From a bacterium (GTDB lineage: Bacteria; Krumholzibacteriota; Krumholzibacteriia; LZORAL124-64-63): DNA of 64,000 nucleotides. Each line of letters starts with the position of its first letter. Position 1 is the first letter of the stretch. Made by a program: the position numbers and the translations under genes. Where the stretch lies: NCBI GenBank assembly GCA_014730255.1, contig WJIQ01000136.1, forward strand, positions 1 through 64,000, given 5' to 3'. The notes beneath the pieces were generated by a model, which had not been told where the DNA came from, ran no database searches, and saw nothing but the letters and a program-made list of their open reading frames with translations. Shown here piece after piece: positions 4,201 to 20,309 of this stretch.

Positions 4201-4439
4201 TGCAGCTCGTTGATCACGCGCGCGTGGCGGACCGGGAGCGTGGCCTTCTGGGTGTGCAGCGACAGATCGAGTGCCTCGACGTCCACGCGATCGCGCATGA
4301 AGACCATCGCGCGGATCGGATCGTCGCCGTCGGCGCGATCGAGCTGATCGGCCAGACCGGGCGCGATCTCCCCGGCGGTCGCGAGGCCGGAGAGGCAGAG
4401 CAGGGCGAGGACCGGCAAGAGGAACTTGCGCAACGACAT
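1203..4439 (-). CDS. secreted subtilisin-like serine peptidase (S8) with carboxypeptidase-regulatory-like beta-sandwich domains and C-terminal FlgD-Ig/T9SS-type sorting domain
   Basis: ORF 1203..4535; start at MSLRKFLLPVLALLCLSGLATA signal peptide; S8 motifs HGTHTVG and GTSMAGPHVAG; C-terminus PNPFNPATTLKFSLPAAGHAQLKLYDVQGRLVRTLVD...GTYYARL...LVLVK. Confidence 0.9.
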   Translation of the reverse strand: MSLRKFLLPVLALLCLSGLATAGEIAPGLADQLDRADGDDPIRAMVFMRDRVDVEALDLSLHTQKATLPVRHARVINELQDRARMTQADLLADLESPRASGQVLGYTSYWLVNGVFVVATKDVIYELAQRDDVEAIEPEMVPELIKPVEEYASTTTGIGITPGVVNINARRVWDELGIRGDGALIGSLDTGVDGNHPALAGRWRGLFAPASEAWLDVVYGGSTFPDDFNSHGTHTVGTMCGIAADDTIGVAPGAQWIASNAIDQGANPGFDSDILNSLQWFADPDGNPLTTDDVPDVVQNSWGVNENFSGYVDCDSRWWDAIDACEAAGVVLTWSAGNEGPGSTSLRSPADRATTLYNCFSVGSTITTPPFTISGFSSRGPAGPNCGPEENRVKPEISAPGSDVYSAVPGSGYGYKSGTSMAGPHVAGVVALMRSANPNLDVITIKQVLMETAQDLGTVGEDNTYGHGFLDAYDAVLAVMSGIGYLEGTIVDSDTGQPVEGAQVSVVDGYQSDVTDADGRFDLTLPQGAVELVVTRFGYLEGSYTVQIVEDETAVETFQFDPAPVVALSGRVYRPDGSLAAGAVVEALDVPVDPVTSGADGAYSIDLPVGLTYDVQAELELVGRVIEPVDLQGPTTLDLYLLPLGAHAEVSPMAFDETLLAGEQSSRILTVANLGADPLSWRLAAEELGGVPRQAVTPHDPIDLRKGEDDPRPGQSPVTGAGGPDQFGYVWVDSNEPGGPEYDWFDISGLGQTVGNNDDATYGPFDLGFSFPYYGDMYSQVSICTNGFITFESTSADPYTNDPMPSTGSPDLMVAPFWDDLNPSQGGDIYRYHDEANARYIVQWDGVPHYFSDGSFTFQVMLYESGVIVFQYNSLSYGNECTIGIENADASDGLQIVYNSDYVEDGMAILVSAGSLVPWLDYSPLAGTVGPDEMAEVSVMFDATELSFQEYLAELTLSSNDAEQSTMVLPVVLNVVQDVTAAEDLPLAFGLDHAAPNPFNPATTLKFSLPAAGHAQLKLYDVQGRLVRTLVDDHRAAGAHEVRWQGRDDAGRQVASGTYYARLIADGRASVRTLVLVK

Positions 4440-4598
4440 GATCGAATTCCCTTCTGCAGTGTGGTTGGCGGCAGGACGGCCGAGCCGGCGGGACCCCCGG
4501 GCCGCCGCCGGCAATGTTTTCGCATCGAGTCTCATTTTATCACAGATGAACGTATCCGCCCAGCGATTCTGTCGAACAATCAGGAACAGGAGCCATTA

Positions 4599-6593
4599 TC
4601 AACGCACGAGCGCCAGGCGCGCCGTCCGCCGCTCGCCGGCGATCTCGAGCACCGCGAGGTAGACGCCGGCCGCGGCCTCGCGCCCCGCGCGGTTCCGGCC
4701 GTCCCAGCCGACCGTCCGCTCGCCCGCCGGGATCTCCCGGTCCAGCAGCGACCGCACCAGCCGCCCACGCGCGTCGTAGAGCACGAGGCGGGCATGCCCG
4801 GCGGTCGGGCTGCTCAGGTGCAGCGTGGTGCGCGGATTGAAGGGGTTGGGCCGGGCCGCGAGCGTGAGCGCGGGGCTGGCCGGCGGCGTGGCGGTCAGCT
4901 GGTCGAGGTAGGCGTTGCACAGGATCCAGTCCTGCGGATCGAACTGGCAGATGCCCACCCCGGGCGGACCGGTCAGGACGTAGTGCTGCACGCGCCGGTC
5001 GTTCTCGACGACGACCTCCTCGAAACCGAGGGCGTGGTGCAGGCGCAGCCGGATCGGCATCTCGAAGACGGGCTCGTCCTGGGTCTGCTCGATGCGGACG
5101 TGGATGGTGGACCGCTCCGGACCGCTGGCGACCTCGTAGCCGAACAGGTACTCCGGATGCCCCGACCCGTAGATCCACTGCTGGAAGAAGGTCGCCAGGT
5201 CGCGTCCGGAGACGTCCTCCATGGCCGCCTGCAGGTCCTCGGTCGTGGCCGTCCCGTAGGCGAACCGCTCGCGGTAGAGCGCCAGTCCGGCGAAGAAGTC
5301 CTCGTCGCCCAGCACCCCGCGCAGCATGTGCACGACCCAGCTCGCCTTGTCGTAGCTCAGGTCCAGATCGAAGATCGAGCCGAAATCGTCGGGGTCCTCG
5401 ACGTAGATCGTGCCGCCGCCGAGGTACTCGTTTTCGAGCATCTCCTCGCGGTAGGCCGCGAACCCCTCGGTCTGCTCGCGCCAGTAGGCCTCCGACCAGG
5501 TCGCGAACCCCTCGTTCAGCCAGATGTGATGGAAATCGGCGCAGGTCACCAGGTCGCCCCACCACTGGTGGGCGAGCTCGTGGGCGATCAGCCCCTCGCC
5601 GTGGAAGTAGTAGATCATGCTCGAGCAGGTCTGGTGCTCCATGCCCCCGCCCCAGGTGAAGTGCGCGTGGCCGTACTTCTCCGCCAGGAACGGATACTCG
5701 CCGAACGCCCCGCGGAAGACGGTGATCATCTCGGGCACGCGGCCGTAGCCCTCGCGCGCCTCCTCCTCGTAGTCCGGGACGACGTGGTTCTCGACCGGCA
5801 TCGTGGTGCCGTCGAGCGCGGTGTAGGTGTCGGTGAACACGCTGTAGGGGTAGGCGGTGATCGAGACGAGGTACGTGGCGATGGGATAACGCGAGCGCCA
5901 GTGGTAGGTGGCGCGGCCGCCGTCGCGGTTCTCGGCGGCGAGCACGCCGTTGCTGGCGACCACGTACGGCTCGTCGATGGTCACGCGCACGTCCACCGAG
6001 TCGGCCTTGTCGACGTTGAGGTCCTTGCACGGCCACCACGTGCGCGCGCCGTAGGGTTCGCTCAGCGACCAGACGAGCTTCCGGCCGTCGGCCCACGACC
6101 AGCCGAACGCGTTGCCGGCCCCGGACGGATCGCCGTGGTAATCGACGGCCACGGTGACCGTCTCGCCGGGCTCGTAGAGGCGGTCGAGGTCGATGGTCAG
6201 GCGATCGTCCGCGTGAGTGAAGGTCACGGGAGCGGCGTCGACGCGGACCGCGTCGGTGGTCAGCAGCGAGGTCAGGTCGAGCACCAGGGTATCGGTCGCC
6301 TCGTCCACGACGATCGCCGTGGTCTCGACCGTCCCGTCGAGCGTCTCGCCGGCGACGTCGACGTCGAGGTCCAGGTCGTAGTGCGTCACGTCGAAGAGCA
6401 GCTGCACCGGGTCGGGATCGCCGACCGCCCTGTCCGCGGCCTGCCGCTCGAGCGCGGCGATGCGACGCTCGGCCTCCCACTGGCGCCACGGGTGCGGTCC
6501 CTCGGGCACCTCCCCCGGCCGGGGCTGGAGCGGCGGGCCGGCGAGGGTGGTCGCGGCCATGGTCAGCAGCACGAGGCCGAGGAACGAGCGCAT
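4599..6593 (-). CDS. secreted M1-family aminopeptidase (gluzincin) with C-terminal FlgD-Ig/T9SS-type sorting domain
   Basis: ORF 4599..6695; start at MRSFLGLVLLTMAATTLA signal peptide; GAMEH and HELAHQWWG-x18-NEGFA zinc-binding motifs; C-terminus RPNPFNPRTTLHLSSPTAGHARLVLYDARGRLVRSLLD...ALVR. Confidence 0.9.
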   Translation of the reverse strand: MRSFLGLVLLTMAATTLAGPPLQPRPGEVPEGPHPWRQWEAERRIAALERQAADRAVGDPDPVQLLFDVTHYDLDLDVDVAGETLDGTVETTAIVVDEATDTLVLDLTSLLTTDAVRVDAAPVTFTHADDRLTIDLDRLYEPGETVTVAVDYHGDPSGAGNAFGWSWADGRKLVWSLSEPYGARTWWPCKDLNVDKADSVDVRVTIDEPYVVASNGVLAAENRDGGRATYHWRSRYPIATYLVSITAYPYSVFTDTYTALDGTTMPVENHVVPDYEEEAREGYGRVPEMITVFRGAFGEYPFLAEKYGHAHFTWGGGMEHQTCSSMIYYFHGEGLIAHELAHQWWGDLVTCADFHHIWLNEGFATWSEAYWREQTEGFAAYREEMLENEYLGGGTIYVEDPDDFGSIFDLDLSYDKASWVVHMLRGVLGDEDFFAGLALYRERFAYGTATTEDLQAAMEDVSGRDLATFFQQWIYGSGHPEYLFGYEVASGPERSTIHVRIEQTQDEPVFEMPIRLRLHHALGFEEVVVENDRRVQHYVLTGPPGVGICQFDPQDWILCNAYLDQLTATPPASPALTLAARPNPFNPRTTLHLSSPTAGHARLVLYDARGRLVRSLLDREIPAGERTVGWDGRNRAGREAAAGVYLAVLEIAGERRTARLALVR

Positions 6594-6691: not shown

Positions 6692-7564
6692 TCACCCCGA
6701 CATCAGCCCACGCAGCAACGGGTTGGGGAACTGGCGGGTCATGGTGATCGCGACGAAGGTCTCGTGCAGACCCGGCAACCGGTCGATCTCCACGAGCCGA
6801 CCGGCCTCGAGCTCGTCGCCGACCACGATCGACGGGACCACCGCGAGTCCGACGTCCTCCAGCGCGAGCACGCGCAGCATCGCCATGTCGTCGACCTCGG
6901 CCGCGATGTGCGGCGTGACGCCGAGCCGGTCGGCCAGCGCATCGAAGCCGAGGCGGATGCTGCTCTCCAGCGCCGGGACGACCAGCGGCTCCCGGCCGAG
7001 GATCGTGCGCAGGTCGTCCCCGCGGCGCGCCCGCCGCGGATGGCCGACCAGGCTGACCGGCTGGTCGGCGATGGTGTGCACGACCCAGGGCGTGGCGCCG
7101 TCCCGCGCGGGCGCCGCGTTGGCCAGCAGCACGTCGATGCGGTGCGACTCGAGCTGGCGCAGCAGGTCGGTCAGCGAGCCCGAGCGCATTACCAGCTCGA
7201 CGTCGTCGCGCCCGAGCAGCGGCGCGAGGAACTGGCGCTGGAAGTTGCGGGACAGGGTCGCCAGGGATCCGACGCGCAGGATCTGACGCGCGCGCTCGCC
7301 CCGCGCACCGAGCGTGCCGAGCAGCTCGTCGCCGAGGGCGAAGATCGCGTCCGCGTGATCGAGGGTCAGGCGCCCGGCCTCGGTCAGCAGGAGCTGCTTG
7401 CCGCGACGCTCGAACAGCGCATGGCCGAGGGACTCCTCGAGCCGGCGGATCTGGACCGAGACGGCCGAGGCCGAGACGTGCAGCTCGGCCGCCGCACGCG
7501 TGAGATTGCCGGCATGCGCGACCGCCCAGAAGTAGCGCAGGTGGTGATAGTTGAGATGCGCCAT
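6692..7564 (-). CDS. LysR-family transcriptional regulator (NhaR/CcpC-like), divergent from icd
   Basis: C-terminal 290 aa of ORF 6692..9037: MAHLNYHHLRYFWAVAHAGNLTRAAAELHVSASAVSVQIRRLE (LysR HTH) plus substrate-binding domain; upstream 490 aa of that ORF is antisense to icd and rejected. Confidence 0.85.
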   Translation of the reverse strand: MAHLNYHHLRYFWAVAHAGNLTRAAAELHVSASAVSVQIRRLEESLGHALFERRGKQLLLTEAGRLTLDHADAIFALGDELLGTLGARGERARQILRVGSLATLSRNFQRQFLAPLLGRDDVELVMRSGSLTDLLRQLESHRIDVLLANAAPARDGATPWVVHTIADQPVSLVGHPRRARRGDDLRTILGREPLVVPALESSIRLGFDALADRLGVTPHIAAEVDDMAMLRVLALEDVGLAVVPSIVVGDELEAGRLVEIDRLPGLHETFVAITMTRQFPNPLLRGLMSG

Positions 7565-7569
7565 GACTT

Positions 7570-7612
7570 CATTCTGTTTCATGAAACAATTTGTTTCAAT
7601 CATTGAATTATC
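7570..7612. promoter_or_regulatory. interlocking palindromes in LysR/icd divergent intergenic region (candidate LysR box)
   Basis: AT-rich island ctgTTTCATGAAACAATTTGTTTCAATCATTGAAtt containing TGTTTCA|TGAAACA (14-bp perfect palindrome), GAAACAA-T-TTGTTTC and TTCAAT-C-ATTGAA; followed by RBS aaaggag before icd ATG at 7691. Confidence 0.5.
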
Positions 7613-7690
7613 TGTATTCGAGAACGGCGCGATATTGACGCCGTCCAGCCGCGCCCGACCACCTCGCGACGCCCGAAAGGAGCCCCGCTC

Positions 7691-9133
7691 ATGCCCACGA
7701 CCCGCATCACCGTCGCCGCCGGCGACGGCATCGGCCCGGAGATCATGGAATCGACCCTGCGCATCCTCGACGCCGCCGGTGCCGACCTCGCCTACGACCA
7801 CGTCGAGGTCGGCGAGAAGGTCTACGAGCAGGGGCACACCTCGGGCATCGCCCCCGAATCCTGGGACACCATCCGGCGCAACCGCGTGCTGCTGAAGGCG
7901 CCGATCACCACGCCGCTCGGCGGCGGCTACAAGAGCCTGAACGTCACGCTGCGCAAGTCGCTCAACCTCTTCGCCAACGTGCGGCCGACCAAGTCGTACG
8001 CGCCGTACGTCTCCTCGCCGCACCCGGGCATGAATCTCGTCGTCGTGCGCGAGAACGAGGAGGACCTCTACGCCGGCATCGAGCACCAGCAGACCCAGGA
8101 GGTCACGCAGGTCCTGAAGCTCATCACCCGGCCGGGCTGCGAGCGCATCGTCCGCTACGCCTTCGAGTACGCGCGGGCGTACGGCCGCCGCCGGGTGACC
8201 TGCATGACCAAGGACAACATCATGAAGATCACCGACGGGCTCTTCCACCGGGTCTTCGAGGAGGTGGCCGCCGACTATCCGGACCTCGAGAGCGACCATC
8301 AGATCATCGACATCGGCGCGGCGCGCCTGGCCGCCCAGCCCGAGCAGTTCGACGTCATCGTCACGACCAACCTCTACGGGGACATCCTCTCGGACATCGC
8401 CGCGCAGATCGCCGGTTCGGTGGGCCTGGCCGGCTCGGCGAACATCGGCGAGACGATGGCCATGTTCGAGGCGGTGCACGGCTCGGCGCCCGACATCGCC
8501 GGCAAGGACGTCGCCAACCCGTCCGGGCTGCTGCTCGCGGCCACGCAGCTGCTGGTGCACATCGGCCAGGCCGAGATCGCCGAGTCGATCAAGAACGCCT
8601 GGCTCTGCACCCTGGAGAGCGGCCTGCACACGCCGGACATCTACCGACCGCAGCTCAGCGAGCGCGAGGTCGGCACCCGCGCGTTCACCGACGCGGTGAT
8701 CGAGCACCTCGGCCGGGAGCCGCGTCAGCTGACACCGGTGCACTACCGCGAGGGCGGGATCTCGGTGCAGGTGGCCGAGGCGCCACGGCGCGCGAAGCAG
8801 CTGCGTGGGGTCGACGTGTTCCTGGACTGGGATGCCGACGGTCGCGACCCCGACGAGCTCGGACGCGGCCTCGAGGCCGCCATCGGCGCCGCGTGGCGTC
8901 TGAAGATGATCACCAACCGGGGCGTGAAGGTGTACCCAGAGGGCCTGCCCGAGACCTTCCGCACCGACCACTGGCGCTGCCGGTTCGTGCCCGCCGAGGG
9001 CGACACCGTCCCCTTCGGCGCCGTGCTCGACCTGCAACGCGACGTCGACCGCGCCGGGTTCGAGGTGATCAAGACCGAGAACCTGTACCTCTTCGACGGG
9101 GAGGCGGGGTACTCGCTCGGCCAGGGCGAGTAG
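7691..9133 (+). CDS. icd: isocitrate dehydrogenase, IDH/IPMDH family, long form with ~130-aa C-terminal extension (Thermus-type)
   Basis: 480 aa; N-terminal ITVAAGDGIGPEIM, DIIDIGAARL and NLYGDILSDIAAQIAGSVG motifs of beta-decarboxylating dehydrogenases; strong RBS. Confidence 0.75.
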   Translation: MPTTRITVAAGDGIGPEIMESTLRILDAAGADLAYDHVEVGEKVYEQGHTSGIAPESWDTIRRNRVLLKAPITTPLGGGYKSLNVTLRKSLNLFANVRPTKSYAPYVSSPHPGMNLVVVRENEEDLYAGIEHQQTQEVTQVLKLITRPGCERIVRYAFEYARAYGRRRVTCMTKDNIMKITDGLFHRVFEEVAADYPDLESDHQIIDIGAARLAAQPEQFDVIVTTNLYGDILSDIAAQIAGSVGLAGSANIGETMAMFEAVHGSAPDIAGKDVANPSGLLLAATQLLVHIGQAEIAESIKNAWLCTLESGLHTPDIYRPQLSEREVGTRAFTDAVIEHLGREPRQLTPVHYREGGISVQVAEAPRRAKQLRGVDVFLDWDADGRDPDELGRGLEAAIGAAWRLKMITNRGVKVYPEGLPETFRTDHWRCRFVPAEGDTVPFGAVLDLQRDVDRAGFEVIKTENLYLFDGEAGYSLGQGE

Positions 9134-9175: not shown

Positions 9176-9475
9176 TCAATGCTGGAGCCAGCGCGCGTCC
9201 GAGGTCAAGCAGACCCCGCCGACGCGCTCGAGCAGGGGGCGCAATGCATCCGTGACGGCCTCCAGCTGCTCGGGAGGGCAGGTCGTCAGGATGTAGTGGT
9301 TGTTGGAGACGCCGGTGATGTCGTCTCCCCGCCGGTCGCCGCGCTCGCCCGAGCCGGACACGCTGCGGATCAGCGTGTAGCCCAGGATGCCCAGATCGGC
9401 CAGCAGCTCGACCACCTTCTCGGAGTGCAGGGCGTCGATGACGATCTCGATGCGGCAGACCGGCTTCATGGTCAC
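9176..9475 (-). CDS. PII-like signal-transduction protein (SbtB-like)
   Basis: 99 aa; pattern KPVCRIEIVIDALHSEKVVELLADLGILGYTLIRSVSGSGERGDRRGD...ILTT resembles the PII-fold partner of SbtA transporters; 4-bp overlap with upstream permease gene. Confidence 0.6.
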   Translation of the reverse strand: MTMKPVCRIEIVIDALHSEKVVELLADLGILGYTLIRSVSGSGERGDRRGDDITGVSNNHYILTTCPPEQLEAVTDALRPLLERVGGVCLTSDARWLQH

Positions 9476-10452
9476 CTCCAGAGCGCGAGGATCACCGCGT
9501 AGTAGAGCGGGATCCCCAGGGCGATGTTGAACGGGAAGGTGAGCGTCAGGGCCATGGGCAGGTAGAGGCTCGGATTGGCCCGCGGCAGGGCCACGCGCAC
9601 CGCCGCCGGCACGGCGATGTAGCTCGCGCTCGCACAGAGCACGGTCAGCAGCAGGGCATCCCCGACGGACAGGCCCAGCAGCGACGAGACGCCGATGGCC
9701 AGCGCCGCGTTGACCAGGGGGGCGAGCAGCGCGAACGAGCCGAGGAACACCCCCGAGGCCTTGAGCGCGTCGAGCCGCCTGGCCGCGATGATGCCCATGT
9801 CCAGCAGGAACAGGCAGAGCACGCCGCGGAACGGCTCGTAGGCGAACGGCTTGACCATCGCCCAGCCTTCGTCGCCGGTCACCACGCCCACGAGCAGGCT
9901 GCCGATCAACAGGAAGACCGGCCCGTTGAGGAACGCCTCGCGCAGCAGGGGACCGAGCGCCCGGTTCGTGGCCGCCTCGCCGTCGGCCGTGTCCTGGAAG
10001 CGGCGCGCCAGCAGCACGCCCACCAGGATGGCCGGCGACTCCATCAGCGCCATGGCGGCCACCATGTGGCCGCCGTAGCTCACACCCTGGTCGTCGAGGA
10101 AGGCCGAGGCGGTGATGAACGTCACCGCGCTGATGGAGCCGTAGGTGGCGGCGATGGCCGCCGCGTCCTCGGTGCCGAGCCGCGCGCGCAGGATCGCGAA
10201 CGCCGCGATGGGCACGAGCGCGCTCGCGACCACGCCGGCGGCCAGCGGCAGGAGCGTGGCGACCGTGAACCCGCTGCGCGACAGCTCCACTCCGCCGTGC
10301 ATGCCGATGGCGAACAGCAGGTACAGCGACATGCCGCGGGTGATCGGCTGCGGGATGTCGAGGTCCGACCGCACGAGCGCGGCCACCATGCCGAGCAGGA
10401 ACAGCAGGATCGGGGGCGTGAGCAGACTGCCGAGGATCAGTGACGCGTCCAA
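9472..10452 (-). CDS. SbtA-family Na+-dependent bicarbonate-type transporter permease (short-loop form)
   Basis: 326 aa, about 10 TM; N-terminal DIPQPITRGMSLYLLFAIGMHGG and C-terminal LPRANPSLYLPMALTLTFPFNIALGIPLYY match the internally repeated SbtA family fold as recalled. Confidence 0.6.
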   Translation of the reverse strand: MDASLILGSLLTPPILLFLLGMVAALVRSDLDIPQPITRGMSLYLLFAIGMHGGVELSRSGFTVATLLPLAAGVVASALVPIAAFAILRARLGTEDAAAIAATYGSISAVTFITASAFLDDQGVSYGGHMVAAMALMESPAILVGVLLARRFQDTADGEAATNRALGPLLREAFLNGPVFLLIGSLLVGVVTGDEGWAMVKPFAYEPFRGVLCLFLLDMGIIAARRLDALKASGVFLGSFALLAPLVNAALAIGVSSLLGLSVGDALLLTVLCASASYIAVPAAVRVALPRANPSLYLPMALTLTFPFNIALGIPLYYAVILALWR

Positions 10453-10504: not shown

Positions 10505-11212
10505 TCAAGCGATCCGACGCCGCGCGGGCGCCGCGCCCGTCGTCGTCACCGGCTCGCGCCGGTAGACCGCGAAGAAGTGCGGGACCGGCGGATCCTGCGT
10601 GTCGTCGTGGGCCAGGAACGACCGCTCGACGAGCCCGGCCTCGGTCACGAACCGACCGATCTCGCGGCGATCGAGCGGCACGGGGAACGCGTCCTCCTTC
10701 TCGCCGGCCTCGCGGCCACGGCACGAGACGAGCACCACGCCGCCGGGCGCGACGAGGTCCGCGATCGCGGGCAGCGACCGCTCACGTGCCTCGTCCACCA
10801 GGATCTGGATCGTGTTGCACTCGAAGACCAGGTCGAACCCCTGCCGCCAGTCCGCCGGCGGGTCGAAGAGGTCGCCCTCCACGTAACGGACCGAGCTGTC
10901 GGGGTAGCGCTCGCGGCACATCCCGACCGCGGCGGCCGAGATGTCGAAGGCGGTCACGTGGTACCCGTGGCGCGCGAGCACCTCGGCATCGTCACCGAGG
11001 CCGCAGCCGACGACCGCGGCGCGCCGCCCGCCCACCGGCGCATGGGATTCGAGCCAGGCGACCAGGTGCGGGTTGGGCGCGAGGTCGGCCCAGTAGACGC
11101 GGTGGATGTCGCCGTCGGCCCGGGCGTAGAACTCGTCGAACCAGCCGTTCGGATCGCCCGCGGCGGCATAGCGGGCGGCGAGGTCGCGGGTGGCCTGCTT
11201 GGGGTCGGTCAT
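10505..11212 (-). CDS. class I SAM-dependent methyltransferase (TPMT-like)
   Basis: 235 aa; motif I VVGCGLGDDAEVLARHG, DISAAAV, motif post-I YVEGDLFDPP. Confidence 0.75.
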   Translation of the reverse strand: MTDPKQATRDLAARYAAAGDPNGWFDEFYARADGDIHRVYWADLAPNPHLVAWLESHAPVGGRRAAVVGCGLGDDAEVLARHGYHVTAFDISAAAVGMCRERYPDSSVRYVEGDLFDPPADWRQGFDLVFECNTIQILVDEARERSLPAIADLVAPGGVVLVSCRGREAGEKEDAFPVPLDRREIGRFVTEAGLVERSFLAHDDTQDPPVPHFFAVYRREPVTTTGAAPARRRIA

Positions 11213-11320: not shown

Positions 11321-14300
11321 TCAGGCCCGGGGCGACTGCTGGACCGGGTGGGTGGCCGCCGGCTGCCGCAGGTCCTCGCCGTCGTCGGCGTGCTGGCGGA
11401 GGTCCTCGATGTGCCGCCGGCGCTTCTCGGCCTCCTCGAGGAAGATGCCCGTCAGGCGGGGGCAGTACCGGGTGCCGGCGAAGGCCTGGATCTCGGCCAG
11501 CGCGTCGTTGAGCGGCACGGCCGGGCGCCAGGGCCGCCGCTGCAGCAGCGCCCGCAGGCTGTCCGTCAGGGCGATCAGGCGCGAGCCGAGGGGGATCGCC
11601 TCGCCCGCCAGGCCCTCCGGGTAGCCGCTGCCGTCGTAGTTCTCGTGATGGTGCAGGATGATCTCGCGCACCTTCGGCGGCGGCTTGATGGGCGCCAGCG
11701 TCACCAGGCTCGCCTGGACGTGGCGCTCGAGCTGGATGCGCTCGGCGTCGGTCAGGGCGTCGGGCTTGTTCAGGAGATGCGGCGGGACCGTGGAGAGCCC
11801 GACGTCGTAGTAGCGCAGCGCGAACGCGAGATGCCGCAGGTCGGCCCCGGGCAGGCCCAGCCGGCGGGCGCTCGCCAGGCAGATCTCGTGGCAGACGCTG
11901 GCCACGTCGGTGCGCGGCAGGATACCGACGCGCGTGGTCGCCCGCAGCGACGACTGGATGGCCGCGAAGTCGCGCAGGGAGCTCTCCTGGCTCTCGTAGC
12001 GCTGCAGCAGGTGCACCAGGCGGGGCGCCATCGACTCGAGCAGCAGGCGGTCGTCCGGCCCGAACGACTGCCCGTCGTGCCGGTCGCGGACCGCCACCAC
12101 GCCGACCACCTCGCCCTCGAACGGCAGCGGCACGCAGAGCACCGGCCCACCCCCGGAGAGCAGCACATCGCCGCTCTCGGGCGTCTCGAGGCGGGTCTCA
12201 CCGTCGGCCCAGGTCCGGCCGGCGAGGCCGACCCCGCGACCGAGCCGCAGGTCCTGCAGCTGCCCGGCCGGCAGCCCGGCGGCGGCGACCACCTCGAGAT
12301 GCTCCCGCGGCTGGTCGACGCGCATGAGCACCGCCGCGTGCACGCCCAGGTTCTCGCTCACCCAGTGCAGCAGGCGCTGCAGCGACAGTCGGGGATCGTG
12401 GAACACGGGGCTGATGGACGCCGGCGCCGATGGCAGCACCACGTGCGGGCGCCGCGGCAGGATTACCGTCAGCCTCGCCCCGCCGCCGGGCATGTTCTCG
12501 GCCCAGATGCGGCCGTCGTGCCAGCTGGTGATGTCGCGGCAGATGCTCAGGCCGACCCCCTGGCCGCCGACCTCCCGGGTGCTCGACCCGTCGACCTGGT
12601 AGAACTGCTCGAAGATGGTGTGGAGCTTGTCCTCGGGGATGCCGATGCCGGTGTCCTGCACCTCGATGCGGACGGCGGTGCCCTGCTCGAAGATGCGTGC
12701 CGACACCGCGCCGCCGGGGGGCGTGAACTTGAACGCGTTGTCCAGGAGGTGCTCGAGGAGCTGCTGGCAGAGCACCGGATCGGCCTCCAGCGACATCCGG
12801 GACGCCGGGCAATCGAGCTGGAAGTCGAGATCGCGCTGCTCGGCCTTCTGGCGCCAATCCTCGGCCAGCCGGCGCGTGAGCGCGGCGAGGTCGCACTCGG
12901 CCCGGTCGACCCGCGCCGACTGATCCTCCATGCGCTCGAGATCGAGCAGGTTCTCGATGATCTCGCGGAACTGCTGGCCCTGTTCGTGGATCACCGCGAG
13001 GAACTCGCCACGGACGTCGGGCGACATGCTCTCGCCCCGGTCGCGCAGCATCTCGCTGTAGCCGATGATCGAGGTCAGCGGGGTGCGCAGCTCGTGGCTC
13101 ACGTTGGCGATGAAGTTGCTGCGCAGGTCGCCCAGCGATTGCAGCCGGTCGTTGGCCACGGCCAGCTCGTCGCGGCAGGCGGCGAGCCGCTCGCGGACCT
13201 CGTTGCCCTCGAGCACGGCGGCGAGCTGGCGGGCCAGCAGCTCGACGTAGCGGATGTGCAGCAGGTCGGGGCCGCTGTCCTCGCCCGGCTCGCTCAGCTT
13301 GAAGAACCCGTGCAGCGCTCCGGCGGGATCGGTGATCGGCACGATCAGGTGCTGGCCGGGCGGCCACTGCCCGTCGTCCGCCGCCGCGCCGGCCGGTTGC
13401 GCGGACACCGGCGGCACCAGGTAGCTGTTGGAGACCCGGAACCGCGGATGGACCATCTGCTCGTAGGTCGCGCGATCGAGCGTCGCCTGCGCGCCGGTTC
13501 CCGGGACCTCGAACTCGCCGTCGATGGCGGTCGCACGGGCGACGAAGGCGTCACGCGTGTCGGTCCAGTGATAGAGGTCGGCGCGGCGGAACGAGAAGAG
13601 GGTCCCGACGAGCTCGACCGCGCCGCGCATCAGGTCCTGACGTCCCCGCAGGCTCTGCAGCTCGACCGCGCTGGCCACCAGGTGCTCGAGCAGGCGCGCG
13701 CGCCGGCTCGCGCCCTGCGTGATCTCGAGGGCCTGCTCGCCCCGCAGGCGCGCCTGGGCCAGGTCTTCCTGGGCGACGCCGAGATCGGCGCGCAGGACGT
13801 CCCGCTCGGCCGTGAGCGTGGCCGTGCGCTCGGCGGCCTGGTCGCGCTCGCCGATCAGTCCGCGCATGAGTTCGTGGACGAGCAAGACCACCAGCAGCAC
13901 GTGCAGGAGCAGGTGGCACGCCGCCGCCGGCAGGTTCCGTGCGAGCAGGGGCCGCGTGAACTCGCCGCCGATCAAGCCGAGGAACACCGCCGCCGCCGCG
14001 GGCGCGGCCAGCAGCACGAGCGCGGTGCGCCGCCGCGTGTTGGCGGCGAGGATGCCCGCGGCCGCCACGAGCAGCTGCGCGAGAAGCGTCAGGTCGAGCA
14101 GGGAGAAGGCCGCCGACAGGAGCGGCCGCGGCTCGACCTGCCAGCCCTCGACGAACACCCGCAGCAGGGCCGTCGGCGCCAGCACCAGGCCGGCGAAGCG
14201 GATCTGCCGCCAGGCCTCGCCGCGGTCCTCGCGGCGGGCGACGTGCCCGAGCACGGCCATCAACGCCCCGCAGACCCCGATCGCCGCCAGGTAGACCGTC

Positions 14301-14368
14301 GCCAGCCGCCAGTCCAGGAGCGGCAACTCGGCGAAGGTGAAGACCGGCATGCTGGCGATCAGGTCCAT
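11321..14368 (-). CDS. membrane sensor histidine kinase fused to GAF and C-terminal HD-GYP domain (HD motif replaced by YD)
   Basis: In-frame start MDLIASMPVFTF within ORF 11321..14932 (upstream part overlaps the REC gene in another frame); about 5 TM, coiled coil, GAF, HisKA SNFIANVSHELRTPLTS, HATPase DTGIGIP...GQGVGLSI, second GAF, HD-GYP block HHHENYDGSGYPEGL with LRYYDVG in place of LLHDIGK. Confidence 0.8.
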   Translation of the reverse strand: MDLIASMPVFTFAELPLLDWRLATVYLAAIGVCGALMAVLGHVARREDRGEAWRQIRFAGLVLAPTALLRVFVEGWQVEPRPLLSAAFSLLDLTLLAQLLVAAAGILAANTRRRTALVLLAAPAAAAVFLGLIGGEFTRPLLARNLPAAACHLLLHVLLVVLLVHELMRGLIGERDQAAERTATLTAERDVLRADLGVAQEDLAQARLRGEQALEITQGASRRARLLEHLVASAVELQSLRGRQDLMRGAVELVGTLFSFRRADLYHWTDTRDAFVARATAIDGEFEVPGTGAQATLDRATYEQMVHPRFRVSNSYLVPPVSAQPAGAAADDGQWPPGQHLIVPITDPAGALHGFFKLSEPGEDSGPDLLHIRYVELLARQLAAVLEGNEVRERLAACRDELAVANDRLQSLGDLRSNFIANVSHELRTPLTSIIGYSEMLRDRGESMSPDVRGEFLAVIHEQGQQFREIIENLLDLERMEDQSARVDRAECDLAALTRRLAEDWRQKAEQRDLDFQLDCPASRMSLEADPVLCQQLLEHLLDNAFKFTPPGGAVSARIFEQGTAVRIEVQDTGIGIPEDKLHTIFEQFYQVDGSSTREVGGQGVGLSICRDITSWHDGRIWAENMPGGGARLTVILPRRPHVVLPSAPASISPVFHDPRLSLQRLLHWVSENLGVHAAVLMRVDQPREHLEVVAAAGLPAGQLQDLRLGRGVGLAGRTWADGETRLETPESGDVLLSGGGPVLCVPLPFEGEVVGVVAVRDRHDGQSFGPDDRLLLESMAPRLVHLLQRYESQESSLRDFAAIQSSLRATTRVGILPRTDVASVCHEICLASARRLGLPGADLRHLAFALRYYDVGLSTVPPHLLNKPDALTDAERIQLERHVQASLVTLAPIKPPPKVREIILHHHENYDGSGYPEGLAGEAIPLGSRLIALTDSLRALLQRRPWRPAVPLNDALAEIQAFAGTRYCPRLTGIFLEEAEKRRRHIEDLRQHADDGEDLRQPAATHPVQQSPRA

Positions 14369-14373
14369 CGGTC

Positions 14374-14757
14374 CTATCCGGTTCGGGTGCGTTCGTCCAG
14401 CAGGTTGCGGAGGTGCTCGACCAGCCGCGCGATGGTGAAGGGCTTCCTCATGTAGAGATCGGCACCGGCCTCGTTCATGGCCTCGCGCACGGCCTGATCG
14501 GTGCGCGCGGACAGCGCGATGATCACGGTGTCGGCGAAGCTGCGGTTGCGGCGCAGCAGGCGCGTGGTCTGCACCCCGTCGAGCCGGGGCATCATGATGT
14601 CCATGATCACGACGTCGGGGCGGAAGGCGTGCACGCGGTTCATGGCGTCCATGCCGTCGGTCGCCACGGCGACCTCGTAGCCCTCGTCGCGCAGCGTGTG
14701 CTCCAGGAGCGTCGCCACGGGCGCCTCGTCGTCGACGATCAGGATGCGCTGGTTCAC
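14374..14757 (-). CDS. stand-alone response-regulator receiver (CheY-like)
   Basis: 127 aa, ILIVDDE...VVIMDIMMP...IIALSA...KPF; GTG start; 5 bp upstream of kinase start. Confidence 0.85.
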   Translation of the reverse strand: MNQRILIVDDEAPVATLLEHTLRDEGYEVAVATDGMDAMNRVHAFRPDVVIMDIMMPRLDGVQTTRLLRRNRSFADTVIIALSARTDQAVREAMNEAGADLYMRKPFTIARLVEHLRNLLDERTRTG

Positions 14758-14763
14758 GTCCCG

Positions 14764-17157
14764 TTACCTCCCGCTCGGGCTCTCGATGGGGCGAGATTCG
14801 TTCTCGATGGGCACCAGGCCCTCGTCCCGCAGGACGGCGACGAACGCCGCGACGACGTCGCCGTCGAACTGGGTACCGACGTTGCGGCGCAGCTCGTCGA
14901 CCGCCGTGGCCACCGGCACGCCGTCGCGCCACGGCCGCGAGTGGATCATGGCGAAGAAGGCGTCGACCACCGCGATGATGCGCGATCCGATGGGGATGGC
15001 GGCGCCGCGACGACCATCGGGGTAGCCGAGCCCGTCGACGCGCTCGTGGTGGTGGCGGATGATCATCTGCAGCTCCGGCACGTCGACGAGCGGGCCGAGC
15101 ATCTCGAGGCCGCGCTCGGGGTGTCCGCCGACGTGGTCGCGCTCGTCGGTGTCCAGCTCGTCGGGCTTGTGCAGGACCTCGGGGTCGAGGATCAGCATGC
15201 CGGCGTCGTGCAGGGCGCCGGCGTACTGCAGCAGGCGGATCTCGTAGGACGACAGACCCAGGCGCCGGCCGGTGCGCGCCAGCAGGCGCATGGCCAGCGG
15301 ATCGGTGGTCGGCACGCCGACGCGCCGCAATCCGCTCAGCGCCGACACGGCCTCGATCACGCGATCCTGGCGCTCACGGTCGCCGCCTGCGTCGCGCAGG
15401 GCGGTCCAGGCGTTGCCCAGCACGTCGGTCAGCACCACCAGCAGGGCCAGATCGTCGTCGCCGAACACGCCGCCGCCATGCCGGCGAGCGACGAGCACGA
15501 TGCCGTCGCCGCTCGTCTCGCCCAGCTTCAGCGGTGCGAGCATCGCCGAACCGGGCCCCTCGACGCCGCCGCTGGCCATCTCGCGCAGGGAAGCCGGCAT
15601 GCGGGCCAGGCGGGGCCCGTCGACCAGGGTCCGGTGGATGCCGTCGCCGCCGTTGGCGATCAGATCGAGCGCCTCCCGTCCCAGCCCCATGGACGCCACG
15701 CCGCGCCGGCGGTCGCCATGACCGTCGGGCAGCAGCAGGGCCACGCCGCGCGCGGCCGCCAGCTCGGCGATCAGGCGCAGGCTCAGCGACGCCATCCGCT
15801 GGCGACGGCCCGGGTCGATGTCGCCGAGGGCCTCGCCCGGGACGAGCTCGCGGTGATGCTGCTCCTTGGGCAGGAGCACGGTGAAGGTGGTGCCCCGGCC
15901 GACGCGGCTGGAAACGTCCAGGTGGCCGCCGTGCAGGTTGGTGATCTCCTTGACGATGCTCAGGCCGAGCCCCACGCCCTCGATCTCGCGCGCCGAGCGC
16001 GTGCGGTAGAAGCTCTGGAAGATGGCCCGCATCTCGCGCGGCGGGATCCCCTCGCCATTGTCGGTCACCGCCAGGCGCACCATGGCCGTGTCCTCGCGCG
16101 CGGCGACGACCACGCGGCCGCCGGCGGGCGTGAACTTGATCGCATTGCCGACCAGGTTGACCAGGACCTGGCGCACGAGGTCGTCGTCGCCCTCGATGGC
16201 CGGCAGGTCGGTCGGGATCCGCGCCACCAGGTGCAGGTTGCGGGCGCTCGCCTGCGGGGCCATGGTCCGCACGATCTCGTCGACCAGCGGCCCGACGGCC
16301 ACGGCCGCCGACTCCGCCAGCGCCTGTCCTCGACCGCGACGCGTCGAGTCGAGCAGGCGGTCGACCAGGCGCAGGAGGCGGTCGGCCTCGCCGCGGATCA
16401 CCGCGAGGAACTCGCTGCCGTACGTGAAGGTCGGGTCGTCGGCCCGCTGCTCGAGGACCTCGGCATAGGCGGTGATCGAGGTCAGCGGGGTCTTGAGCTC
16501 ATGGGCCGTCACGGCTGCCAGGCGGGTCCGCAGCTCGCCGAGGCGCGAGAGCGTCTCGCATTCCGAGCGCAGGGCGCCGTTCTCGGTCGCGACGTCGACG
16601 AGCCGGCGACGCTGGCCCAGCAGGGGCGCCAGCAGGGCCGCCAGCTGCTCGAGCTCGGCGCCGAGGGCATCGATCGCGGACGGCTCGGCCGGTGGACGGC
16701 TCAGGCCGAGCAGCAGCACGAGTCCAGCCTGGCCGGCGCAGTCGACCGAGACCGCCAGCCAGCCGGCGGTGCGGTCGGCGTCGCCGGGCGGGACGGCGGC
16801 CGGATCGACGGGCGCCACGCCGGCGTCGCCGAGCAACGCGCCCGCGGCGGCGTCGCATCGCTGCCAAAGCTCCTCGTCGACCGGGGAATCGGACCAGGTG
16901 AACTCGTCGGTCGAGGCGCCCCAGACGACCCCGCGATCGGCCGTGCCGGGATCGGGCGGGACGCTGCCGATCGCCCCGCGCGGGCTCAGGAGGACCCAGG
17001 CGACGTCGTCGACGTCACGCCAGCACCGTACGACCTCCTCGCAGAGCACGCGCCAGGCCGCGCCATCCTGCCAGCGTCCCTCGAGACGGCGGCCGGCCGT
17101 GGCCAGCACCCCGTGCGTCCGCGTCGTCGAAGGTGGGCTGTCCGGGCCGTCTCGCAT
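14764..17157 (-). CDS. cytoplasmic histidine kinase-GAF-HD-GYP fusion protein (canonical HD-GYP)
   Basis: 797 aa; HisKA AVTAHELKTPLTS, HATPase NLVGNAIKF...DNGEGIP...GVGLGLSIV, GAF, HD-GYP YAGALHDAGM and IIRHHHERVDGLGYPDG; paralog of 11321..14368. Confidence 0.85.
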   Translation of the reverse strand: MRDGPDSPPSTTRTHGVLATAGRRLEGRWQDGAAWRVLCEEVVRCWRDVDDVAWVLLSPRGAIGSVPPDPGTADRGVVWGASTDEFTWSDSPVDEELWQRCDAAAGALLGDAGVAPVDPAAVPPGDADRTAGWLAVSVDCAGQAGLVLLLGLSRPPAEPSAIDALGAELEQLAALLAPLLGQRRRLVDVATENGALRSECETLSRLGELRTRLAAVTAHELKTPLTSITAYAEVLEQRADDPTFTYGSEFLAVIRGEADRLLRLVDRLLDSTRRGRGQALAESAAVAVGPLVDEIVRTMAPQASARNLHLVARIPTDLPAIEGDDDLVRQVLVNLVGNAIKFTPAGGRVVVAAREDTAMVRLAVTDNGEGIPPREMRAIFQSFYRTRSAREIEGVGLGLSIVKEITNLHGGHLDVSSRVGRGTTFTVLLPKEQHHRELVPGEALGDIDPGRRQRMASLSLRLIAELAAARGVALLLPDGHGDRRRGVASMGLGREALDLIANGGDGIHRTLVDGPRLARMPASLREMASGGVEGPGSAMLAPLKLGETSGDGIVLVARRHGGGVFGDDDLALLVVLTDVLGNAWTALRDAGGDRERQDRVIEAVSALSGLRRVGVPTTDPLAMRLLARTGRRLGLSSYEIRLLQYAGALHDAGMLILDPEVLHKPDELDTDERDHVGGHPERGLEMLGPLVDVPELQMIIRHHHERVDGLGYPDGRRGAAIPIGSRIIAVVDAFFAMIHSRPWRDGVPVATAVDELRRNVGTQFDGDVVAAFVAVLRDEGLVPIENESRPIESPSGR

Positions 17158-17170
17158 GGTGTCGCGTCCC

Positions 17171-18160
17171 TCAGGTGTCCTGGCTCTGCCCCGGATCGTC
17201 CAGGGAGATCATCTCCGTGCTCGCGTCCGGAGCCCGACGCTCCTTGACCACGACGGAGCCGGGTTGCTGCTTGCCGTGGCGCTTGAGCTCGGCCAGTGCG
17301 TCGCTGACCGCCACGGGGTGGTTGTAGCGGCGGGGAACGTCGGTGATCAGCGCGACGGTCAGCGTGATCAGCGGCGCGTGGACGCGCTCGCCCGTGCGGG
17401 TCGAGATCTCGAGGTAGCCGCGGGCGAGGTCCTCGGGGTCGTGCAGACCCTCGCTGTCGCGCTCGAAGGCCTCGACGATCGCCCCGGCGATGGCGTCCGC
17501 CTGCCCCGAGTCGCAGAGCACCAGGAAGTCGTCGCCACCGACGTGGCCGATGAAGTCGTCGGGGCTGCCGATGCCGTCGACCACGTTGCCGATGGTGTCG
17601 GCGACCAGCTCGATGGCGAGGTCGCCGCGGGCGTAGCCGTAGTGGTCGTTGAAGCGCTTGAAGCGATCGATGTCCAGGTACATGGCGGCGAACGGCCCGC
17701 CCTCGCGCAGCCGGCGCGCCATCTCGCGCTCGATGGCGTGGTTGCCCGGCAAGCCGGTCAGCGGGTTGGCCTCGCGCTGGGCCTGGACGGTCTCGAGCAT
17801 GTTCGCCACGCGAGCGAGCAGTTCCTCCTGATCGAAGGGCTTGCTGACGTAGTCGTTCGCGCCGCCACGGAAGCCGCGCACGCGCGCCACGCTCTCGCCG
17901 CGGGCGGTCAGCATGATCACGGGTAGCCGCTGCAGGCCCCGGAGCTGGCGGATGTGCTCGAGGACGGCGAACCCGTCCAGGTGCGGCATCATGACGTCCA
18001 GCAGGACCAGGTCGGGGCGCTCGGCCACGACCTGACTGATCGCTTCCTGGCCGTTGCTGGCCGTGACCACCCGATATCCGGCCTCGTCGAGCAGGAACTC
18101 CAGGATCCGCCGGATATGCTGATCATCATCTGCGATCAGGATTTTTGCGGGTTCGTGCAT
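17171..18160 (-). CDS. response regulator with GGDEF-type diguanylate cyclase domain (signature GGDDF)
   Basis: Start at MHEPAKILIADDD within ORF 17171..18286; REC domain; GGDEF domain ...NDHYGYARGD...IGHVGGDDFLVL. Confidence 0.85.
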   Translation of the reverse strand: MHEPAKILIADDDQHIRRILEFLLDEAGYRVVTASNGQEAISQVVAERPDLVLLDVMMPHLDGFAVLEHIRQLRGLQRLPVIMLTARGESVARVRGFRGGANDYVSKPFDQEELLARVANMLETVQAQREANPLTGLPGNHAIEREMARRLREGGPFAAMYLDIDRFKRFNDHYGYARGDLAIELVADTIGNVVDGIGSPDDFIGHVGGDDFLVLCDSGQADAIAGAIVEAFERDSEGLHDPEDLARGYLEISTRTGERVHAPLITLTVALITDVPRRYNHPVAVSDALAELKRHGKQQPGSVVVKERRAPDASTEMISLDDPGQSQDT

Positions 18161-19631: not shown

Positions 19632-20309
19632 ATGAAGACCTTGACCGCCCTGTGGACGACCCTGCTGCTCGTGGCCGTGGCCACGACCGCCACCGGTGCC
19701 GGCGACGGCCTGCGCAACGCCGCCGAGCGCCGCGACGATCGCCAGGACCTGCGCCAGGACCGACACCAGCTGCGCGACGACCTGCGCGACGTGGCGCATC
19801 TCGAGCGTCTCATCGATCGCCACGCCCGAGCCGTCGCCACCGGCGACCAGCTGGCGCTCGCGGCCATCGATCGTGAGGTCGCCGCGATGCTGAATGCCGA
19901 GATCGGCGAGGCCAGGCGCGAGACCCGCGACGCCGGGCGGGAGCTGCGGCAGGGACGCCGCGAGGTCCGTTCGGACCGGCGGGAGATCCGTGACAATGCC
20001 CACACCGGCGCGTCCGCGCGCGAGCGCCGTGACGACCGGCACGATCTGCGCGACGACCGGCGCGACCGGCGCGATGACCGGCGCGACCGGGCGCGCGAGC
20101 AGGATCATCTCGAGAACTACCTCGCGATCCGCGACGACTGGGCCGCCCTGGACCGGACCGGTGACGCGGCGCGCAAGACCGACCTGCTGCGTGATCTGCT
20201 GGAGATCGCCCGCGCGGAGCTGCGCGGCGACCGCGTCGAGCTGCGGGAGGATCGCCGCGAGCTGCGCGAAGACCGGCGGGAGACCCGCGAGGACCGGCGC
20301 CAGCGCTGA
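19632..20309 (+). CDS. secreted low-complexity R/D/E-rich repeat protein (hypothetical)
   Basis: Start MKTLTALWTTLLLVAVATTATGA signal peptide inside ORF 19080..20309; body is alternating-charge helical repeats (RDDRRDRRDDRRDR; ELREDRR x3). Confidence 0.5.
   Translation: MKTLTALWTTLLLVAVATTATGAGDGLRNAAERRDDRQDLRQDRHQLRDDLRDVAHLERLIDRHARAVATGDQLALAAIDREVAAMLNAEIGEARRETRDAGRELRQGRREVRSDRREIRDNAHTGASARERRDDRHDLRDDRRDRRDDRRDRAREQDHLENYLAIRDDWAALDRTGDAARKTDLLRDLLEIARAELRGDRVELREDRRELREDRRETREDRRQR

Follow-up and report, generated by a model that had tools for sequence, protein, structure and literature searches.

A conserved operon joining histidine kinases with altered HD-GYP domains and a putative GGDDF-type cyclase in Krumholzibacteriota

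Predicting which proteins are receptors for cyclic di-GMP (c-di-GMP) is difficult, and among the domains linked to this messenger the HD-GYP domain is understood least. The first 64,000 nucleotides of contig WJIQ01000136.1 (assembly GCA_014730255.1, Krumholzibacteriota; G+C ~72%), here called the window, carry an operon in which such a domain is fused twice to a complete histidine kinase (HK), next to a receiver protein bearing a GGDDF motif. Do these kinases hydrolyse c-di-GMP, or do they read it? A preliminary description of the window proposed a phosphorelay wired directly to c-di-GMP hydrolysis. This link is doubtful for both kinases, because the same five residues, essential in the phosphodiesterase PmGH, are lost from both. 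The fused domains are instead most likely c-di-GMP sensors, judging from the residues they keep. As an arrangement that unites two-component with c-di-GMP signalling, the operon is conserved and, in the literature searched, undescribed. All of its parts belong to known superfamilies, and it is not a new class of system.

The operon consists of four co-directional, tightly spaced open reading frames (ORFs) on the minus strand. g1 (17171..18160, 329 amino acids (aa)) encodes a receiver (REC, aa 7-118), a coiled coil and a GGDEF-fold domain with the sequence GGDDF, as assigned by Pfam, AlphaFold2 (AF2) and Foldseek. g2 (14764..17157, 797 aa) is a cytoplasmic histidine kinase in which a GAF fold, HisKA, HATPase_c and a weak GAF precede the HD-GYP-like domain (Pfam, AF2 and Foldseek). 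g3 (14374..14757, 127 aa) starts with GTG and encodes a single-domain receiver (Pfam Response_reg). g4 (11321..14368, 1015 aa) is a membrane histidine kinase with transmembrane segments, HisKA, HATPase_c, GAF and a domain reading YD in place of HD (YD-GYP), based on Pfam and hydropathy. Both the order of the genes and their domain architectures match the preliminary description. The intergenic gaps are 13 nt (g1-g2), 6 nt (g2-g3) and 5 nt (g3-g4), the last one agreeing with the reported start of g4 5 bp past the receiver stop. The start codons fit the ortholog lengths in the related locus L001 (window/L001: 329/329, 797/797, 127/128 and 1015/1012 aa for g1 to g4), and the N-termini also agree.

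Residues of the kinase-fused HD-GYP-like domains

Both C-terminal domains pass the HD_5 cutoff of 27.2 bits by a wide margin (97.5 bits for g2, 115.5 bits for g4), with matches beginning at profile position 21-23. Their HD-GYP part aligns to PmGH of Persephonella marina (PDB 4mcw) with E = 1e-14, and 5z7c is the best PDB match of the g2 domain. We mapped the residues of both domains onto PmGH and PA4781 (4r8z) using HMMER alignments and a MAFFT alignment of 70 sequences. The HHExh(D/N)GxGYP motif is satisfied by HHHERVDGLGYP of g2 (15019..15054, minus strand as for all operon features), which contains the counterparts of H276, H277, E278 and the GYP, and by HHHENYDGSGYP of g4 (11618..11653). 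The HD dyad is kept in g2, where it forms part of the sequence ALHDAGM (15196..15216) and the counterpart of K225 is Met. In g4 the equivalent sequence RYYDVGL (11795..11815) has YD for HD, and Leu replaces the conserved Lys. All of these motifs, together with the GGDDF of g1 (aa 208-212), are present as quoted in the preliminary description. The replacement of HD by YD in the membrane paralog is confirmed and does not vary among g4 orthologs: every g4-type sequence inspected has it (6 copies from operons, P0054, P0055 and the 20 metagenomic fragments P0241-P0260).

The cytoplasmic paralog had been described as canonical, which does not hold: g2 lacks D183, E185, H189, K225 and D308, and so do g4 and all orthologs of the two that were examined. 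The preliminary description was right on the YD of g4, but g2 is altered too. D183 of PmGH corresponds to Arg in g2-type sequences and is variable in the g4 type (Ile in the window), while E185 is Gly in the g2 type and variable in the g4 type (Pro in the window). H189 is replaced by Ala, Thr or Val in g2-type and by Val or Leu in g4-type domains; in g2 itself the position is occupied by Thr618 of the sequence PTTDP (15298..15312), with Ala, Thr or Val in the orthologs. H221 is an invariant His in the g2 type and Tyr in the g4 type. K225 is Met in 58/58 g2-type sequences and Leu or Met in the g4 type (Leu in the window). D308 is Phe in 49/58 g2-type sequences (Phe in the window) and Arg, Ala, Asn or Ser in the g4 type (Arg in the window). 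The single kinase of locus L087 reads RD in place of HD.

Seven metal ligands are common to the bi- and trinuclear HD-GYP subfamilies (H189, H221, D222, H250, H276, H277 and D305; Bellini 2013). Of this set, g2 lacks H189, and g4 lacks H189 and H221. In PmGH, the H189A, H221A, D183A, K225A and D308A mutations essentially abolish hydrolysis, and phosphodiesterase (PDE) activity is gone or markedly lower in the alanine mutants at D183, E185, H189, K225 and D308 (Bellini et al. 2013). E185 and H189 lie on the "H-site" side of the metal cluster, and the complex of PmGH with c-di-GMP was solved with the G-site iron alone (Bellini et al. 2013).

A different set of residues is kept in both types: D222, H250, H276, H277, E278, GYP, D305, R314 and an Arg at 317, with a g2 subgroup of ~600 aa reading GHP in place of GYP. 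The residues that contact c-di-GMP (K235, Y285, R314 and K/R317; roles as given in the survey text of Galperin & Chou) are Lys, Tyr, Arg and Arg in g2 and g4, and the KPG sequence reads KPD. RxxR in both domains fits the c-di-GMP-type RxY[K/R], not the cGAMP-type RxxQ/N (cGAMP, cyclic GMP-AMP). The kinase-fused domains thus appear to have lost the H-site and its scaffolding and to have retained the G-site and the nucleotide contacts.

To obtain a background we used 85 other HD-GYP domains matched in a search with the GAF-HD-GYP part of g4; these are mostly fragments from short contigs and were not used to count architectures. Of these domains, 89% have His at position 189 and 92% have it at 221, while Lys is found at 225 in 82% and Asp or Glu at 308 in 86%. 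Since these residues are mostly kept in ordinary HD-GYP domains, their joint loss is a family trait and not noise. An additional His in front of the HHE (HHHE) was considered as a compensating ligand and rejected, as His occupies this position in 71/85 of the ordinary domains.

The altered domains do not show signs of decay. Compared to L001, the YD-GYP domain of g4 is 81% identical and its kinase core 69%, and the YD-GYP domain is the best kept part of g4 among closer relatives. The HD-GYP-like domain of g2 is at 73%, equal to its kinase core. Because the HD-GYP-like domains are conserved as much as the kinase cores or more, we consider them to be working parts of the proteins.

A third HD-GYP-like domain of this genome occurs in another protein scaffold. 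The product of the gene at 36200..38230 (minus strand), 676 aa long, combines STAS and a weak GAF with a degenerate domain, in which HD is changed to RN (LVRNVGQ) and GYP to GFP (HHHERFDGRGFP). A CdaA-type diadenylate cyclase (CdaA_N and DAC; 35139..35933, plus strand) lies ~270 nt away in convergent orientation, indicating that the organism also has cyclic di-AMP signalling.

Kinase architecture and the GGDDF regulator

In g2, Pfam detects HisKA, HATPase_c and HD_5, while GAF_3 is under threshold (17.8 vs 27 bits). The layout comprises a GAF fold (aa ~45-163), HisKA (210-275), HATPase_c (323-432), the weak GAF (460-583) and the HD-GYP-like domain (~600-780). The weak central GAF is backed by precomputed GAF matches in the orthologs P0028-P0037. 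The first ~195 aa have no Pfam match; in the AF2 model (predicted local distance difference test score, pLDDT, 88) they form a GAF-type domain, after which a long helix leads into the kinase. The Foldseek matches of this N-terminal domain are all GAF (PDE6, Nlh2 and phytochrome GAFs, E ~2e-5). Full-length g2 orthologs are 45-66% identical and have the same Pfam set.

g4, 61% identical to its L001 counterpart, matches HisKA, HATPase_c, GAF_2/GAF_3/GAF and HD_5, with the central GAF_2 at 47 bits. A hydrophobic region with four segments in the hydropathy plot (aa 21-173) is followed by a coiled coil and probable GAF (~230-400), HisKA (416-482), HATPase_c (530-640), GAF (662-785) and the YD-GYP domain (~800-975). 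The additional GAF preceding the kinase core is probable, because Pfam detects one in the g4 ortholog of L084 (weakly) and in the homolog of L089.

The kinase cores are intact, as the preliminary description stated. HisKA and HATPase_c of both proteins are above the Pfam cutoff. The kinase boxes of g2 are AHELKTP, NLVGNAIKF, DNGEGI, IFQSFYR and GVGLGLS, invariant in the alignment of g2 orthologs. Those of g4 are SHELRTP, LLDNAFKF, DTGIGI, IFEQFYQ and GQGVGLS, where the N box LLDNAFKF was read by eye since the search pattern did not match it. The H, G1, F, G2 and H-E-x-x-T motifs were found in both kinases and most orthologs, with some misses, in a pattern search of six operons. g3 (Response_reg, 101 bits) is 79% identical to its L001 ortholog and is the best conserved gene of the operon. 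The receiver residues read D-D-D-T-K in g1 and D-D-D-S-K in g3, and D-D-D-T/S-K in every receiver of the six operons. Kinases and receivers are therefore predicted to be functional. A further HisKA/HATPase kinase core is encoded elsewhere in the window (59899..60603, minus strand); it shares 24-28% identity with the L001 orthologs of g2 and g4.

The fusion itself is unusual, as had been suggested. In g2 and g4 the HD-GYP domain follows HisKA-HATPase-GAF, and neither protein carries a REC, unlike the REC-HD-GYP proteins of the RpfG family. The GAF-HD-GYP order of the PmGH family is present, but here it makes up the C-terminal half of each kinase and its metal site is incomplete. The survey text of Galperin & Chou lists REC, GAF, PAS, GGDEF, GGDEF-EAL, DUF3391, DUF3369, Cache, PBPb, CHASE2 and MASE as HD-GYP partners and contains no kinase core or HK-HD-GYP fusion; its architecture table, an image, is outside this search. 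Full-text literature searches returned kinase-EAL fusions and separate-gene kinase/HD-GYP pairs, and no described kinase-HD-GYP fusion.

The regulator g1 matches Response_reg (113 bits) and GGDEF (54.7 bits, cutoff 23.8), the latter over profile positions 5-106 of 161 only, and is 65% identical to its L001 ortholog. Its AF2 model (pLDDT 89.4) is closest to WspR (3bre, E = 5e-25), DgcR (6zxm, E = 4e-23) and PleD in Foldseek. Comparison with GGDEF-only chains gives a target-normalised TM score of ~0.72. In both NCBIfam and the PDB the best match is to PleD; the NCBIfam match to DgcR is partial.

The GGDDF motif (17525..17539, context GHVGGDDF) has Asp at the fourth position and fails the strict active-site definition [G/A/S]G[D/E]E[F/Y] quoted in PMC8835794. 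We find that GGDDF is the signature of a large conserved GGDEF subfamily and not a sign of decay. [VI]GGDDF is present in 119/120 of the closest g1 homologs, and LTGLPGN in 116/120. When 1.84 billion cluster representatives were searched exhaustively, at least 417 clusters, formed at 50% identity and spanning several phyla, matched at E <= 1e-30; GGDD[FY] occurs in 144/148 representatives of the best 148 of the 417 clusters. An alignment of 44 family members shows D163, D165, K168, N171, D172, G179, D180, GGDDF, K293 and K297 to be invariant. D163/D165, K168, N171, D180, K293 and K297 are metal/GTP residues, which we take, by eye, to be the counterparts of PleD D327, K332, N335, D344, K442 and R446. 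The sequence FNDHYGYARGD (17621..17653) contains the equivalents of PleD N335 and D344, residues of guanine recognition, and the Hypr position. At this position GacA has Ser348 (PMC8835794) and g1 has the invariant D180, so that g1 is not of the Hypr type. Because Asp and not the Hypr Ser occupies the base-specifying position, c-di-GMP is the expected product. A conserved RxxD I-site was not found in the 44-sequence alignment. Besides LTGLPGN, g1 carries an insertion of roughly 25 residues past the GGDDF motif.

Domains of the g1 type also occur as REC-GGDDF-REC-HD-GYP, REC-GGDDF-EAL, EAL-CBS-GGDDF and kinase-REC-REC-GGDDF proteins in Peptococcaceae, Anaeromyxobacteraceae and others. The fusions to EAL and HD-GYP domains tie this domain type to c-di-GMP metabolism. 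GSU1937 of Geobacter sulfurreducens is described as the first known active GGDDF enzyme: assayed as a chimera in E. coli, it made c-di-GMP and cGAMP in vivo, and the GADDF mutant was dead (PMC8835794). The earlier suggestion that g1 may be "catalytically impaired" is not supported by these data, and we regard g1 as a predicted cyclase. The activity of the GH[IV]GGDDF subfamily has been assayed once, in the chimera, and current motif rules would mislabel its members as degenerate. One related protein, P0458 (713 aa), has REC-GGDDF fused to a RibD-like deaminase/reductase (dCMP_cyt_deam_1 and RibD_C). It is odd for a GGDDF domain to be paired with an enzyme of the riboflavin pathway, whose substrate derives from GTP; the protein may also be a gene-calling fusion.

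The proposed circuit and its alternatives

From the observed architecture, residue states, conservation and synteny we infer which kinase acts on which receiver, that the ligand is c-di-GMP and that it is sensed and not hydrolysed. We propose a two-kinase circuit of the PleD/DivK kind, whose kinases would read the product of the cyclase through their HD-GYP-like tails. We put the probability of the whole chain at roughly 45%. g2, with its cytoplasmic GAF-fold sensor, and the membrane-anchored g4 would act as kinase/phosphatases for the receivers encoded alongside, namely g1, g3 and, in relatives, a further receiver (g5). Phosphorylated g1 would dimerise via its coiled coil and make c-di-GMP, as in WspR, DgcR and PleD. 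The C-terminal GAF-HD-GYP modules would then most likely bind c-di-GMP, g4 without turnover and g2 with slow turnover at most. Binding would shift the kinase/phosphatase balance and provide product feedback, which could stand in for the I-site feedback absent from g1. A stronger version, in which kinases throughout the phylum carry a half-dismantled, single-metal (G-site) HD-GYP receptor that forms a c-di-GMP homeostat or oscillator with the GGDDF cyclase, is more speculative and somewhat doubtful.

Several points weigh against the proposed circuit. A domain located C-terminal to the CA domain has no established route to control the DHp helix. For positions 183-189 the mapping depends on residue spacing plus a single gapped alignment with PA4781, and no structure underlies it. 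RpfG of Xanthomonas also lacks the counterparts of E185 and H189 (Bellini et al. 2013), and a close relative from Lysobacter is reported to hydrolyse c-di-GMP robustly (survey text of Galperin & Chou). The loss of H189 alone is therefore no proof of inactivity, and residual activity of g2 is possible. The precedent for an active GGDDF domain is a single chimeric enzyme, and PA3258, a GGDDF-EAL protein, is without cyclase activity (PMC8835794).

Alternatively, g2 could be a working RpfG-like binuclear phosphodiesterase and g4 alone inactive, in which case the kinases would both activate the cyclase and locally degrade its product, as a futile cycle or pulse generator. g2 keeps six of the eight PmGH ligands (H221, D222, H250, H276, H277 and D305), the same set as RpfG, and the active Lysobacter protein lacks the same His. 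The g2 type is also the sole branch that keeps the His of HD (Tyr in the g4 type, Arg in L087), which suggests selection for a role of this residue. However, g2 is also without K225, D308 and D183, each of which abolishes PmGH activity when mutated to Ala, and the invariant Met at the K225 position sets it apart from the Lys found in most other HD-GYP domains. We consider this reading rather unlikely. The HD-GYP-like domains could also serve as docking modules that tether the GGDDF regulator, or some other partner, to the kinase. In g4-type and most g2-type sequences the GYP loop shows strict conservation, GYP-dependent RpfG-GGDEF complexes are discussed in Bellini et al., the YN-GYP protein PA2572 is inactive yet regulatory, and the REC-GGDDF gene adjoins the HK-HD-GYP gene in 8 of the 10 loci compared. 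A pure docking surface would need neither the buried G-site ligands D222, H250, H276 and H277 nor the base-contacting R314 and R317, all of which are conserved; moreover, one RpfG paper (Ryan 2006) was later retracted and the ~600-aa g2 subgroup has GHP, not GYP. Docking as the main function thus appears improbable.

Altered GGDEF domains in EAL fusions commonly are GTP sensors, as in CC3396. The g1 subfamily is often EAL-fused (EAL-CBS-GGDDF, REC-GGDDF-EAL), its motif is outside the strict definition, and PA3258 is inactive, so g1 might be a GTP- or c-di-GMP-binding regulator or adaptor and the module might sense nucleotide made elsewhere; this reading is compatible with sensing. The nucleotide and metal residues are nevertheless invariant across the subfamily, the GGDDF domain of GSU1937 is active in vivo in a motif-dependent manner, and the predicted fold and REC-coiled-coil-GGDEF layout of g1 match WspR and DgcR; we find a non-catalytic g1 unlikely. 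Another dinucleotide, for example cGAMP, would turn the variant cyclase and the variant HD-GYP domains into a matched, insulated pair. Both variants co-occur and are conserved together, the only known active GGDDF enzyme is a Hypr cGAMP synthase (PMC8835794), and HD-GYP domains can be cGAMP-specific, with 5z7c being the best PDB match of the g2 domain. Since the specificity position of g1 is Asp, unlike the Ser of Hypr enzymes, and both HD-GYP-like domains have the c-di-GMP-type RxxR, we regard this as very improbable.

The proposed two-kinase circuit has a close parallel in PleC/DivJ-DivK-PleD of Caulobacter crescentus, which likewise comprises two kinases, a single-domain receiver, a receiver-GGDEF cyclase and control of a kinase (CckA) by c-di-GMP. 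In the window all components are encoded in one operon, unlike in Caulobacter. Unlike PleD, g1 has one REC and not two, GGDDF and not GGEEF, and no I-site; the presumed c-di-GMP reader is the fused HD-GYP-like domain and not, as in CckA, the CA domain. WspR and DgcR resemble g1 in predicted fold and layout, but they have GGEEF/GGDEF and an RxxD I-site, where g1 has GGDDF, LTGLPGN and the ~25-residue insertion without RxxD. GSU1937 shares with g1 a GGDDF motif in a conserved family and the absence of an attached PDE domain (PMC8835794); it differs in its membrane N-terminus and Hypr Ser (cGAMP), g1 being REC-regulated with Asp at that position.

Among kinases, SgmT reads c-di-GMP by a degenerate domain of c-di-GMP metabolism at its C-terminus. 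The histidine kinases SgmT (Myxococcus xanthus, PMC3509222) and RavS (Xanthomonas, PMC6707612) are each a c-di-GMP receptor themselves. In SgmT the domain in use is a degenerate GGDEF (I-site), RavS relies on its own PAS/kinase region, whereas g2 and g4 carry an HD-GYP-type domain; no kinase using such a domain as c-di-GMP receptor is described in the literature searched. The C-terminal halves of g2 and g4 share the GAF-HD-GYP order, HHExxDGxGYP, D305 and RxxK/R with PmGH. PmGH, however, is a stand-alone protein with trinuclear iron, while the module of g2 and g4 lies behind a kinase core and lacks D183, E185, H189, K225 and D308 (in g4 also H221). In the RpfC/RpfG system of Xanthomonas the HD-GYP domain is likewise kinase-linked and without counterparts of E185 and H189, but it resides on a response regulator and is governed by REC phosphorylation; in g2 and g4 it is on the kinase, with no fused REC. 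PA2572 of P. aeruginosa and DvhD of Desulfovibrio vulgaris resemble g4 in that the HD dyad is replaced and the domain is inactive or predicted inactive, yet regulatory; DvhD, with an HD-GYP domain predicted inactive, is a proposed c-di-GMP receptor. PA2572 has YN where g4 has YD, and the partner domains are REC or Cache-PAS, neither protein being kinase-fused.

If the kinase-fused domains bind c-di-GMP, they would form a new receptor class and a direct link from the second messenger to the phosphorelay. They would also serve as a natural experiment that tells the half of the HD-GYP metal centre needed for binding from the half needed for catalysis. Although the hosts are uncultured, these claims are testable because the proteins are rich in soluble domains and heterologous expression is possible.

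Conservation of the module and neighbouring genes

Metagenome bins are the source of the full-length sequences closest to g2, and where an organism name is attached it is Candidatus Krumholzibacteriia/-ota. The taxonomic range was sampled by protein searches and eight context look-ups and is not a census. A scan of a genome collection with the g2 alignment was dominated by generic kinases, with one true relative (L004) among the matches listed. Six Krumholzibacteriota-type loci (L001/L002, L003, L084, L085 and L004), which represent deep branches of the group, are syntenic, with the fixed order Rce1-like, HAD, yjeF, tsaD, REC-GGDDF, HK-HD-GYP, REC, HK-GAF-HD-GYP, REC (g5) and priA. The L085 locus stops at the fifth gene; L004 belongs to the dolphin-mouth metagenome-assembled genome DOLZORAL124, where priA was not identified. 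In the more speculative version of the circuit given above, the housekeeping neighbourhood (tsaD ... priA) suggests a core, possibly cell-cycle-linked role. Two candidate fusions from other groups were discarded: L041 (Pelomonas), which resembled a fusion in the span of its match, consists of a PAS-kinase and a distinct gene downstream of it, and L072 (Negativicutes) has separate ORFs.

Both kinases are present in tandem, as reported initially. With ~33% identity over 600 residues, the duplication of g2 and g4 is old and fixed and not a recent tandem event, and the ancient pair is part of a five-gene module fixed across the phylum. Reduced or variant versions of the module exist elsewhere. An Eisenbacteria bin has tsaD, REC-GGDDF, REC and priA without a kinase, and L088 is similar. 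An unclassified bin has tsaD, REC-GGDDF, one HK-GAF-HD-GYP gene and REC, with priA further along, and a JGI contig combines tsaD and REC-GGDDF with two HK-GAF-HD-GYP genes. The priA-adjacent receiver outside Krumholzibacteriota is of the g5 type (50-59% identity), not the g3 type (34-46%).

The window retains tsaD, yjeF and HAD 5' of g1. An S-adenosylmethionine (SAM)-methyltransferase gene directly follows g4 (10505..11212, minus strand) in the place of g5 and priA, and no g5 ortholog was found in the 64-kb window, indicating that the module is broken on the 3' side of g4 in this genome. The sole hints to the operon limits are a 195-nt gap 5' of g1 and a 108-nt gap 3' of g4; promoter and terminator scans returned nothing usable on the minus strand.

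Further differences in gene content were observed around the module. In L084, yjeF and tsaD are called as one 895-aa gene (3200..5887, plus strand; YjeF_N, Carb_kinase and TsaD) directly 5' of the signalling operon. L089 has a 287-aa stand-alone kinase-like protein (6952..7815, plus strand) between REC-GGDDF and the first HK-GAF-HD-GYP gene, which matches only HATPase_c in Pfam and contains the H-box-like sequence HEIKKP. In the window, an extra gene on the opposite strand (19632..20309, plus) is inserted between tsaD and yjeF and is not found at that place in L001, L003 and L085. Its 225-aa product has a signal-peptide-like N-terminus, and the remainder consists mostly of charged RDDRRD / RELRED repeats. 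Downstream of the operon, a gene for an SbtA-type Na+/bicarbonate transporter (9176..10452, minus strand) overlaps by 4 nt with a small P-II-like gene, resembling an SbtA/SbtB-type pair.

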